Source of the DNA: Candidatus Helarchaeota ASGARD archaeon Hel_GB_B
Lineage (GTDB): Archaea; Asgardarchaeota; Lokiarchaeia; Helarchaeales; HEL-GB-B
Length of the DNA: 32,000 bases
Direction: 5' to 3'
NCBI GenBank assembly: GCA_005191425.1
Contig: SUPR01000026.1
Location: 6,113-38,112 of the forward strand
Below the pieces are notes generated by a model. It did not search any database, was not told the origin of the DNA, and saw only the letters and a list, made by a program, of their open reading frames with translations. A program made the translations under genes and the position numbers. Position 1 is the first letter of the stretch. Each line of letters starts with the position of its first letter. Positions 23,604-25,427 of this stretch are shown here, in pieces.

Positions 23604-25427
23604 ATGAGTGGACCGTTAAAAAAAGGAAAATTACCAAAAGAATTAACAAGTCAAATGGAAGCAACAGCAGCTGCCTCTCAATATCTTCGACAGGCAGTAA
23701 AAAATATGCGTGATTTTATACCACTTGAAAAGCAACGCCGAATATATAAAGATCTTGAAAAAATGTTTGGTGTTGACCCGTTAAACCTAATTGATGAAAA
23801 AATGTATATGAGAAAAGGATTTAACCAGTCCGCAGCGATAATGAAAAATAAAGAATTAGGTAGATTAATCGCTTTAGACCGTTTTATTCCAATGTATGAC
23901 CCAAGTGTAAGTGAACCAATTGGTCATCAGCAATTATTTCCATATAAAATATCTGGTACTGACGAAATTGTATCTGGAAATTCTCTTCATTGTTTCAATA
24001 ATGTCGCGATGCAACAGTTATTTGATGATGTCAGACGCACTACAATTTTAAATCTTGATGTCCCTCACAAAGTGATTCAAGTGCGAGCAAGTAAAGAGGT
24101 TACACCTGAAACTATTGATCATTTTCTTAAAACTTTACAACATACAATTGCAGGTGGTACTGTTTCACTTGATCAGTTTGCTGATATAAATCCTGAATTA
24201 ACCAGAGATGCATATTGTAAAATAATCACGGGAAATGACGAATTAAGAGAATTAATTGATAATAGATTTTCTATTGACATTAATGCCGGCTTTCATAAAT
24301 CTAGAGCTGAAAAGTTAAAACATGCAATTGGTGATACAATACATTTAGTTGTTAGAGCACCAACAATACTAGTAAGAGCATTAGATAATTCAGTTGCTTT
24401 TAAATGGGCCGGAATCCAGAGTACTCTGGCATTTATCGTTGCTTATCGTTTGACCAAAGATTCTAACCTTGCAGATATTTCATATGCAACTCAATATGCT
24501 AATACCATAGCTCTTGGAGAACCTACATGGCAATCATTAGGCGGACATTATAATTCAATCGCCGGTATTCCTTTTGGCTATATAGCTGATATGTGTCAAG
24601 GTGATTCTCAATTACCTTTAAGACCTTTTATGGAAATTACAAATGAAGACCCCAAATTGTCTCGTGAATATTTAAAAAAGTCTATTGGGTGTGTAGGCGT
24701 TATCGCTCCCATTTTAACAAATTTTTGGGATGGATATCAACTGTCTGGTGGTGCCAATATCCTTGATAATGTTGTTATAGACACCTTTACTGGTGGTATA
24801 TTTGATGATTTTATTGATATTATGAATGATATGATGAACAAATATTTTTCGCGTATTGTCAAAATTGGCATGAATTTAATGCCAACTCGCTGGTATAATT
24901 TAAGATGGCCAGTTGAAAATATGGTAAATATTGTTATGGAAACAATGGAAAAATATCCATCGGCTATGGAAACTTTAAAACTAGGTATTCAAAAAATGTA
25001 TATAATTGGGCTCGTAGCAGGGATAATGGCATCTCTCTTATCTGGAAGTTCAACTGCTGGATTATGGGCTATTGATTATGCAATCAGTCTTTTAGTAAAA
25101 GAGGGTTGGTGCCGCACAGGGACAACTGGCTATGAAATTATCAATCAATTAGGGCTCCCTTATTCATGTTCATTACGTATTGAAGAAGGTGGATTACCAG
25201 AACTAAGAGGTATGAATAATTTTCATCAAATCCATTCAATTGGTAGCGCAGTCCCCAGAATCGCTGTATTATATGCAGCTGCACTAGCCCGGGGGGATGC
25301 TTGGGTATCAAGCCCTCTAATTAAAGTAGTTTTCAATGACCCTCACCTTTCATTTGATTTTAAAGACCCAATATCTGCTATTATTAAAGGTACAAAAGGT
25401 GAATTTAAACCTAAAGGAGAAAGTTAA
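23604..25427 (+). CDS. mcrA: Highly divergent methyl/alkyl-coenzyme M reductase alpha subunit-like protein
   Basis: LH..NN.AMQQLFDDVRRT, KEVTPETI, IITGNDE, IPFGYIADMCQ, ELRG and ARGDAW..SPLIKV.F.D..L.FDF; GGTGA SD overlapping the mcrG stop. Confidence 0.93.
   Translation: MSGPLKKGKLPKELTSQMEATAAASQYLRQAVKNMRDFIPLEKQRRIYKDLEKMFGVDPLNLIDEKMYMRKGFNQSAAIMKNKELGRLIALDRFIPMYDPSVSEPIGHQQLFPYKISGTDEIVSGNSLHCFNNVAMQQLFDDVRRTTILNLDVPHKVIQVRASKEVTPETIDHFLKTLQHTIAGGTVSLDQFADINPELTRDAYCKIITGNDELRELIDNRFSIDINAGFHKSRAEKLKHAIGDTIHLVVRAPTILVRALDNSVAFKWAGIQSTLAFIVAYRLTKDSNLADISYATQYANTIALGEPTWQSLGGHYNSIAGIPFGYIADMCQGDSQLPLRPFMEITNEDPKLSREYLKKSIGCVGVIAPILTNFWDGYQLSGGANILDNVVIDTFTGGIFDDFIDIMNDMMNKYFSRIVKIGMNLMPTRWYNLRWPVENMVNIVMETMEKYPSAMETLKLGIQKMYIIGLVAGIMASLLSGSSTAGLWAIDYAISLLVKEGWCRTGTTGYEIINQLGLPYSCSLRIEEGGLPELRGMNNFHQIHSIGSAVPRIAVLYAAALARGDAWVSSPLIKVVFNDPHLSFDFKDPISAIIKGTKGEFKPKGES

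Follow-up and report, generated by a model that had tools for sequence, protein, structure and literature searches.

The mcrA-like gene of a Helarchaeales (Asgard) archaeon, at positions 23604..25427 on the + strand of the 32,000-nucleotide stretch of DNA analysed here (the window), encodes a 607-aa homologue of the methyl-coenzyme M reductase (MCR) alpha subunit in which, judged from its aligned residues, the cationic clamp for the head group of coenzyme B (CoB) is essentially gone. The gene (Pfam MCR_alpha_N 2.7e-72, MCR_alpha 1.2e-07) is the last of a tight operon in which mcrB-, mcrG- and mcrA-like genes lie adjacent on the + strand and all five MCR Pfam domains are matched. It is the sole MCR alpha homologue of its host, a metagenome-assembled genome of 3.54 Mb and 93.7% completeness (G000), and its product is 99% identical to a protein, recorded from several sources, that is listed as a 'hypothetical protein' of a Candidatus Helarchaeota archaeon. 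The query belongs to a group of five known sequences, which we call D1; in G000 and in G004, a genome of the same genus, a D1 enzyme is the only MCR homologue present. We lean towards the reading that D1 is a functional enzyme, derived from the alkyl-coenzyme M reductases (ACRs), that would no longer bind CoB in the canonical clamped way.

Loss of the coenzyme B clamp residues

Positions 24486-24570 of the + strand translate to ATQYANTIALGEPTWQSLGGHYNSIAGI, residues 295-322 of the McrA-like protein. Canonical residues are given in the numbering of M. marburgensis MCR, which was anchored through M. fervidus McrA against 1HBM and validated on known motifs. The HMMER alignment of this stretch to the alpha chains of solved MCRs contains no gaps and has invariant anchors on either side; it places Q297 at K256, Y298 at H257, S311 at R270, L312 at R271 and G314 at R273, and the substituted codons were confirmed. 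A first-pass annotation, made from the letters of the DNA, had proposed exactly these five replacements together with N481 to S545, and the anchored alignment and codons agree with it at every one of the six positions, as they do with its description of a gapless fit and a loop devoid of arginine: residues 295-322 hold 0 Arg, 0 Lys and 1 His. It was mistaken in stating that R225 is kept within a VRA motif, as the arginine of LVRALD aligns to position 216 and R225 itself (SRW) aligns to K267 (AFKW; 24402..24404, +), a conservative change.

In MCR the CoB phosphothreonine is anchored by alpha R270 and R271, by alpha' R225, K256 and H257, and by beta H379 (PMC12842094). The same six positions are occupied in the query by K267, Q297, Y298, S311, L312 and beta N395, which do not compose a cationic clamp of the MCR type; of the canonical head-group ligands, K267 alone is still represented by a basic residue. 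D376 (24729..24731, +) stands at L320, which in MCR touches the alkyl chain of CoB; Asp is found there in 5/5 D1 sequences and L, Y or F in other MCRs and ACRs. The thiol environment formed by M480-N481-V482 corresponds to H544-S545-I546 (25233..25241, +); N481 is T or S in most ACRs, and its change is not distinctive.

Restriction of the loss to one lineage

For comparison we aligned 159 alpha chains obtained from two database searches, the second a word-based search seeded with a Syntropharchaeia ACR, and took as reference the 129 MCR and ACR alphas that lie outside a divergent clade made up of D1 and two further groups, D2 and D3. All 129/129 of these reference chains have Arg at position 271, all 129/129 have Lys or Arg at position 256, and 125/129 (97%) have Arg at position 273; at these three positions D1 has L/F, Q and G, respectively. 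The five D1 members, 75-78% identical overall, have the motif Q[YK]...EPTWQS[LF]GG in common. Read across positions 225-256-257-270-271-273, MCR has RKHRRR, ordinary ACRs have RK(H/S)SRR, and the ACRs of Ca. Alkanophaga, Syntropharchaeia and the Bathyarchaeota type have R-K/R-H-(S/Q/N)-R-R; D2 has KRQSRH, D3 has KKKSRY and D1 has KQ(Y/K)S(L/F)G. By this alignment the D1 lineage alone has lost K256, R271 and R273.

R270 is already S/Q/N/A and N481 T/S in nearly all ACRs, Y333 is likewise variable, and because all three vary in ordinary ACRs we give them no weight as evidence. The expectation, voiced in the first-pass annotation, that CoB anchoring is normally retained in ACRs thus stands for K/R256, R271 and R273 (7B1S, with Gln at R273, being an exception at that position) and falls for R270 and N481. 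Apart from these last two residues, the loss seen in D1 does not recur in 7B1S or in the Alkanophaga, Syntropharchaeia and Bathyarchaeota types. D1 also departs from the active-site signature of ACRs (W443, a small residue at 444, Q446, F330, M324, K/R256, R271, R273), having T/I/K, Y/N, I/L, Q, L/F and G at positions 443, 446, 330, 256, 271 and 273, respectively.

Stepwise erosion under purifying selection

In a maximum-likelihood tree D1, D2 and D3 form a clade with 100% support, set on a stem of 0.68 and nested inside the ACRs. The D2 enzymes are 52-55% identical to the query, and D3 consists of P0021 and the enzyme of genome G006. The tree and the residues at the six positions together indicate that the clamp was eroded stepwise across these groups, D1 being the most derived member of their long-branched clade.

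All three reading frames of the operon are intact. Against the orthologous operon of G004, dN/dS is 0.105 for alpha, 0.041 for beta and 0.042 for gamma, values that are rough because dS is saturated at 1.6-2.7. Within the alpha gene, dN is lowest (0.100) in the segment that covers the rebuilt loop. An AlphaFold2 (AF2) model of alpha (predicted local distance difference test, pLDDT, 77.9; predicted template modelling score, pTM, 0.82) superposes on 1MRO_A with a Z score of 43.8 and a root-mean-square deviation (rmsd) of 2.1 A over 531 residues. Several independent metagenome runs from vents and sediments contain the operon DNA; no RNA datasets matching the operon or mcrA alone were listed, which is no evidence either way on expression. 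The codon and sequence comparisons indicate that purifying selection maintains the protein and that its new loop is constrained.

Rebuilding of the wider active site

The predicted loss at the CoB head group is, on the aligned contact residues, the extreme of a general rebuild of the cofactor and coenzyme pockets. In the beta subunit, encoded by the mcrB-like gene (21391..22773, +; 460 aa; Pfam MCR_beta_N 8.7e-34, MCR_beta 1.3e-78), alignment to 1HBM_B and 3POT_B with confirmed codons revealed changes at CoB and CoM (coenzyme M) contacts, namely F361 to H377, S365 to D381, Y367 to F383, G368/G369 to S384/I385 and H379 to N395. The H379 position is Asn in the query and Asp in the congener G004, and the F361 position is His or Arg in D1. 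In the gamma subunit (mcrG-like gene, 22788..23597, +; 269 aa; Pfam MCR_gamma 8.5e-76) the CoM sulfonate ligand R120 is kept as R135 by alignment to 3POT_C; it is also kept in the congener and is lost in D2 and D3. The L117-S118-G119 beside it reads D-A-E in the query.

The axial nickel ligand Gln147, which is Met in ethyl-coenzyme M reductase (ECR) and was placed here through the 'VVQEH' motif, is L189 in the query (24168-24170). Leu occupies this position throughout D2 and Gln in the other four D1 sequences, so the query Leu is not a fixed trait of D1. Neither the catalytic beta Y367 nor the aromatic ring of alpha F330, alpha F443 and beta F361 is retained, the corresponding residues being beta F383, alpha I386, alpha T507 and beta H377. 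Further alpha changes replace F396, an F430 contact, by K/R and F443/Y444 by T/T, and the residues of the CoB sleeve (L320, F330, F443, M480, beta Y367, beta G368/G369) are all altered.

Identity at published contact positions summarizes the pattern. D1 is 0.34 identical to canonical MCR overall, 0.34 at F430 contacts, 0.00 at the CoB head group, 0.10 at the CoB chain and thiol and 0.20 at CoM, and the corresponding values for ordinary Helarchaeales ACRs are 0.46, 0.60, 0.62, 0.42 and 0.40. No ligand site of D1 is conserved above the level of the whole protein; in ordinary Helarchaeales ACRs the F430 and CoB head-group contacts do exceed that level. In D1, G445, Q400 and the glycine-rich F430 loops are partly kept.

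The conserved Asp (D376, 24729-24731) and the His/Arg at beta F361 (beta H377, 22519-22521) both fall at positions that in MCR line the hydrophobic CoB/CoM channel, and within what was the sleeve they may make up a polar pair or binding site that is new.

Accessory and coenzyme genes

Across 400 Asgard genomes, MCR homologues occur only in seven Helarchaeales species genomes, and the A2 ATPase (TIGR03269 above its cut-off) follows them precisely, being found in 7/7 genomes with an MCR homologue versus 0/393 without. The query genome carries it on contig C157 at 8100-9731 (locus L014; 678 bits against a cut-off of 517), and its gene immediately follows the operon in D2 and D3. To our knowledge, the only role of A2 is as a component of MCR activation.

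McrC/Mmp7, Mmp3 and Mmp17 were not found in G000, G004 or G006, genomes that are 93-94% complete and hold only a D1 or D3 enzyme. All three were found in G002 and G005, and the McrC/Mmp7 family also in G001 and G003; we use this joint name because the Pfam 'MCR_C' matches of the relatives score as well or better as Mmp7. A2 is thus kept without these partners in G000, G004 and G006. This apparent loss of the McrC/Mmp7-Mmp3-Mmp17 electron-delivery module argues against the standard route of Ni(I) activation, and the retention of A2 and gamma R120 argues for residual MCR-type chemistry.

Genes for the coenzymes themselves discriminate poorly. The known Aks enzymes of CoB synthesis have paralogues among the enzymes of leucine and lysine synthesis. 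CfbD (F430 synthesis) was not found in G000 or in 5/6 of its Helarchaeales relatives, G005 being the only genome with it, and ComA (CoM synthesis) was found in 0/7 Helarchaeales genomes; both are also absent from most or all relatives with ordinary ACRs and are therefore not discriminating. Mmp10, which methylates Arg271, and the YcaO marker for thioglycine were found in 0/7 as well. The first-pass annotation had labelled positions 257 and 271 as methyl-His and methyl-Arg; the positions are right, and with Mmp10 in 0/7 genomes the methylated framing probably does not apply to Helarchaeales. Its proposal to look for Hdr genes turned out to be uninformative on the use of CoB, because HdrB scores above its family cut-off in 261/400 Asgard genomes, nearly all of them without MCR. 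In G000 the best HdrB reaches 305.7 bits, below the TIGR03288 cut-off, a shortfall that could be an assembly gap or a real loss.

On the same contig as A2, positions 781-5104 of locus L014 (G000, C157) encode an HdrD/TfrB-like CCG-domain iron-sulfur protein between two GlcD-like FAD oxidase genes, a cluster that may be a lactate/glycolate-type dehydrogenase module.

Candidate explanations

The loop at 24486-24570 corresponds to the part of MCR alpha that, together with R225 of the partner alpha chain and beta His379, makes up a positive ring around the CoB phosphothreonine at the mouth of the channel. In D1 this ring has been dismantled and new sequence fixed in its place, with one lysine (K267) left: the universal Arg at 271, the near-universal Arg at 273 and the always-basic residue at 256 have given way to L/F, G and Q, and beta His379 to N/D. 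An Asp has been added to the hydrophobic sleeve that normally holds the heptanoyl chain of CoB. Across the clade of D1, D2 and D3 the fold and three-subunit operon have been kept under purifying selection while the whole pocket was rebuilt. The occupant of the channel would then not be held by a phosphate clamp; it might be another thiol or reductant with less negative charge, or there might be no comparable occupant. The idea, first raised from the sequence of the loop, that the second substrate may not be CoB fits the lost clamp and is too narrow, as F430 and CoM contacts, beta Y367 and beta F361 have changed too; since the contact sites for F430, CoM and CoB have all diverged, a second substrate other than CoB is just one reading among several.

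Several observations weigh against an unclamped enzyme. D1 has gained basic residues, K285 at G244, K/H at Y323 in 4/5 sequences (Gln in the query), K298 in 2/5 and H/R at beta 377, and these might re-form an anion site in the assembled complex. The retention of K267 and gamma R120 suggests that CoM-type chemistry may persist, and A2, tied to MCR in Asgard genomes as described above, argues for an F430 enzyme that would still be activatable. In the congener G004 an HdrB scores 430.9 bits and passes the TIGR03288 cut-off. The AF2 monomer falls below a pLDDT of 50 at residues 308-317, which belong to the loop, and at 506-529, and on account of the former the model carries no structural statement on the loop. 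Finally, the sample is small, with five sequences and two species genomes that are related to each other.

The alternative that makes most of these points is that the complex is still a CoB-dependent alkyl-CoM reductase whose head group would be held by relocated contacts, such as K267, new Lys/His residues and backbone amides. The K267 equivalent is kept in all sequences of D1, D2 and D3, the basic gains (G244 to K285, Y323 to K/H, H257 to K, beta F361 to H/R) lie near channel positions, A2 and gamma R120 are retained, and the dispensability of R270 in ordinary ACRs indicates that a clamp tolerates some loss. Yet most of the candidate replacements are not conserved within D1, the query itself having Gln at Y323 and Tyr at 257, and R271 and K/R256 are invariant in the 129 other enzymes, every ACR examined included. 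The Asp in the CoB sleeve and the Asp at beta 379 of the congener run in the wrong direction of charge for an anionic head group, and the altered sleeve residues listed above belong to the same site. On balance we regard a relocated clamp as fairly unlikely.

It is less probable still that the MCR fold was recruited as a scaffold for a function without any F430, CoM or CoB chemistry, the loss of the clamp being a side effect. Such a repurposing would account for F430, CoM and CoB contacts that are conserved no better than background, for the Leu of the query at the nickel ligand Q147, for K/R at the F430 contact F396, and for the missing McrC/Mmp7, Mmp3 and Mmp17 in the three genomes with only D1 or D3, along with CfbD and ComA not being found in G000. 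It sits badly with the retention of A2, encoded right after the operon in D2 and D3, with Q147 in the other four D1 sequences, and with the partial conservation of G445, Q400, gamma R120 and the glycine-rich F430 loops, and the lack of CfbD and ComA loses its force as they are also missing in relatives with ordinary ACRs. A decaying gene or an artefact of alignment or assembly, for which one could cite the weak C-terminal Pfam match (32.7 bits) and the faster evolution of alpha relative to beta and gamma, is highly improbable and was set aside on account of three intact frames with dN far below dS, a motif common to five sequences from different samples, a gapless HMMER alignment with invariant anchors on both sides, and operon DNA in independent metagenomes.

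An ACR-derived enzyme without the canonical clamp thus remains our preferred reading. A broader proposal, possible if rather doubtful, is that D1 and probably D3 represent a new functional class of the MCR fold that would work without CoB and without McrC/Mmp7, Mmp3 and Mmp17, keeping only A2, and would use another second substrate or reductant, perhaps with the cofactor in a different state.

Relation to known enzymes

Lemaire and Wagner (Biochemistry 61:805, 2022; PMC9118554) noted "drastic substitutions" of coenzyme-binding residues in the MCR homologues of Helarchaeota and Lokiarchaeota, the same kind of sequence as the query, so the general idea of altered coenzyme sites was already published; their set may not include D1. 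The available portions of that article neither dissect the CoB clamp nor split D1, D2 and D3 from one another, and they treat neither selection nor accessory genes. The present analysis adds a residue-by-residue account of the clamp, the confinement of its loss to a single sub-lineage, the purifying selection and the pattern of accessory genes.

Among characterised enzymes, the ECR of Ca. Ethanoperedens thermophilum (7B1S) resembles the query in its three-subunit ACR fold (Z 39.9, rmsd 2.5 A, 542 residues) and in having a non-Gln axial ligand, Met in its case. It differs in keeping R225, K256, H257, R270 and R271, with only R273 replaced, by Gln with an Arg adjacent, whereas the query keeps none of these residues as such. 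The nearest functionally interpreted relatives, at 42-46% identity, are the ordinary Helarchaeales ACRs ('clade 3', of the type of Seitz et al. 2019) and the ACRs of Alkanophaga, Syntropharchaeia and Bathyarchaeota. They share with the query the BGA-plus-small-ORF (open reading frame) operon, R270 to S, N481 to T/S and the loss of Y333; unlike it, they keep R225, K/R256, R271, R273, F330, M324, beta Y367 and beta G368/G369, and their genomes, unlike G000, carry McrC/Mmp7, Mmp3 and Mmp17 (the latter two checked in G005 only). MCR I of Methanothermobacter marburgensis (1HBM/5A0Y) has in common with the query the fold (Z ~43.7, rmsd 2.1 A), the set of subunits, G445, Q400 and gamma R120, and differs from it in all five canonical CoB head-group ligands and in Q147, F330, Y333, F443, Y444, beta F361, beta Y367 and beta H379.

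Hydrocarbon oxidation by Asgard archaea, and by the ancestor of Lokiarchaeia, has been deduced from MCR homologues. At least one genus has only a version that appears to lack the CoB anchor, much of the CoM and F430 pocket and most of the activation machinery, and that is nevertheless under purifying selection. If this enzyme runs no CoM-S-S-CoB cycle, metabolic reconstructions for these organisms would be wrong, and the MCR scaffold would support chemistry not yet described. For the hydrocarbon or thioether chemistry of Asgard archaea, a CoB-free class would further imply another second substrate or reductant. D1 also offers a natural test case for the residues truly needed in CoB binding.

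Operon organization and neighbourhood

Directly 3' of the mcrA-like gene lies a 174-aa ORF (25439..25963, +) with no Pfam match. An ORF of 17x aa trails mcrA in every Helarchaeales mcrBGA operon examined, its identity to the query copy being 85-87% for D1, 66-68% for D2 and D3 and 35-43% for operons of ordinary ACRs, and the D2 copy has a weak Pfam SCP2 match (E 0.05); it may be a conserved partner protein of ACRs.

A second D1 contig has the same gene order, running from a 225-aa ORF through mcrBGA and the 17x-aa ORF to an NTP-transferase/phosphoglucomutase fusion and a B12 radical-SAM gene. The fusion (26358-28880 of the window; 840 aa, NTP-transferase/hexapeptide/phosphoglucomutase) and the B12-binding radical-SAM protein (29422-30846) lie downstream of the MCR-like operon and are each 80% identical to their syntenic counterparts in another D1 contig. 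Upstream of mcrB, a ThiF-family E1-like gene (18956-20053) and the 225-aa ORF (20481-21158) are both kept in the congener G004, and versions of the 225-aa ORF with 32-37% identity lie upstream of the D2 operons as well.

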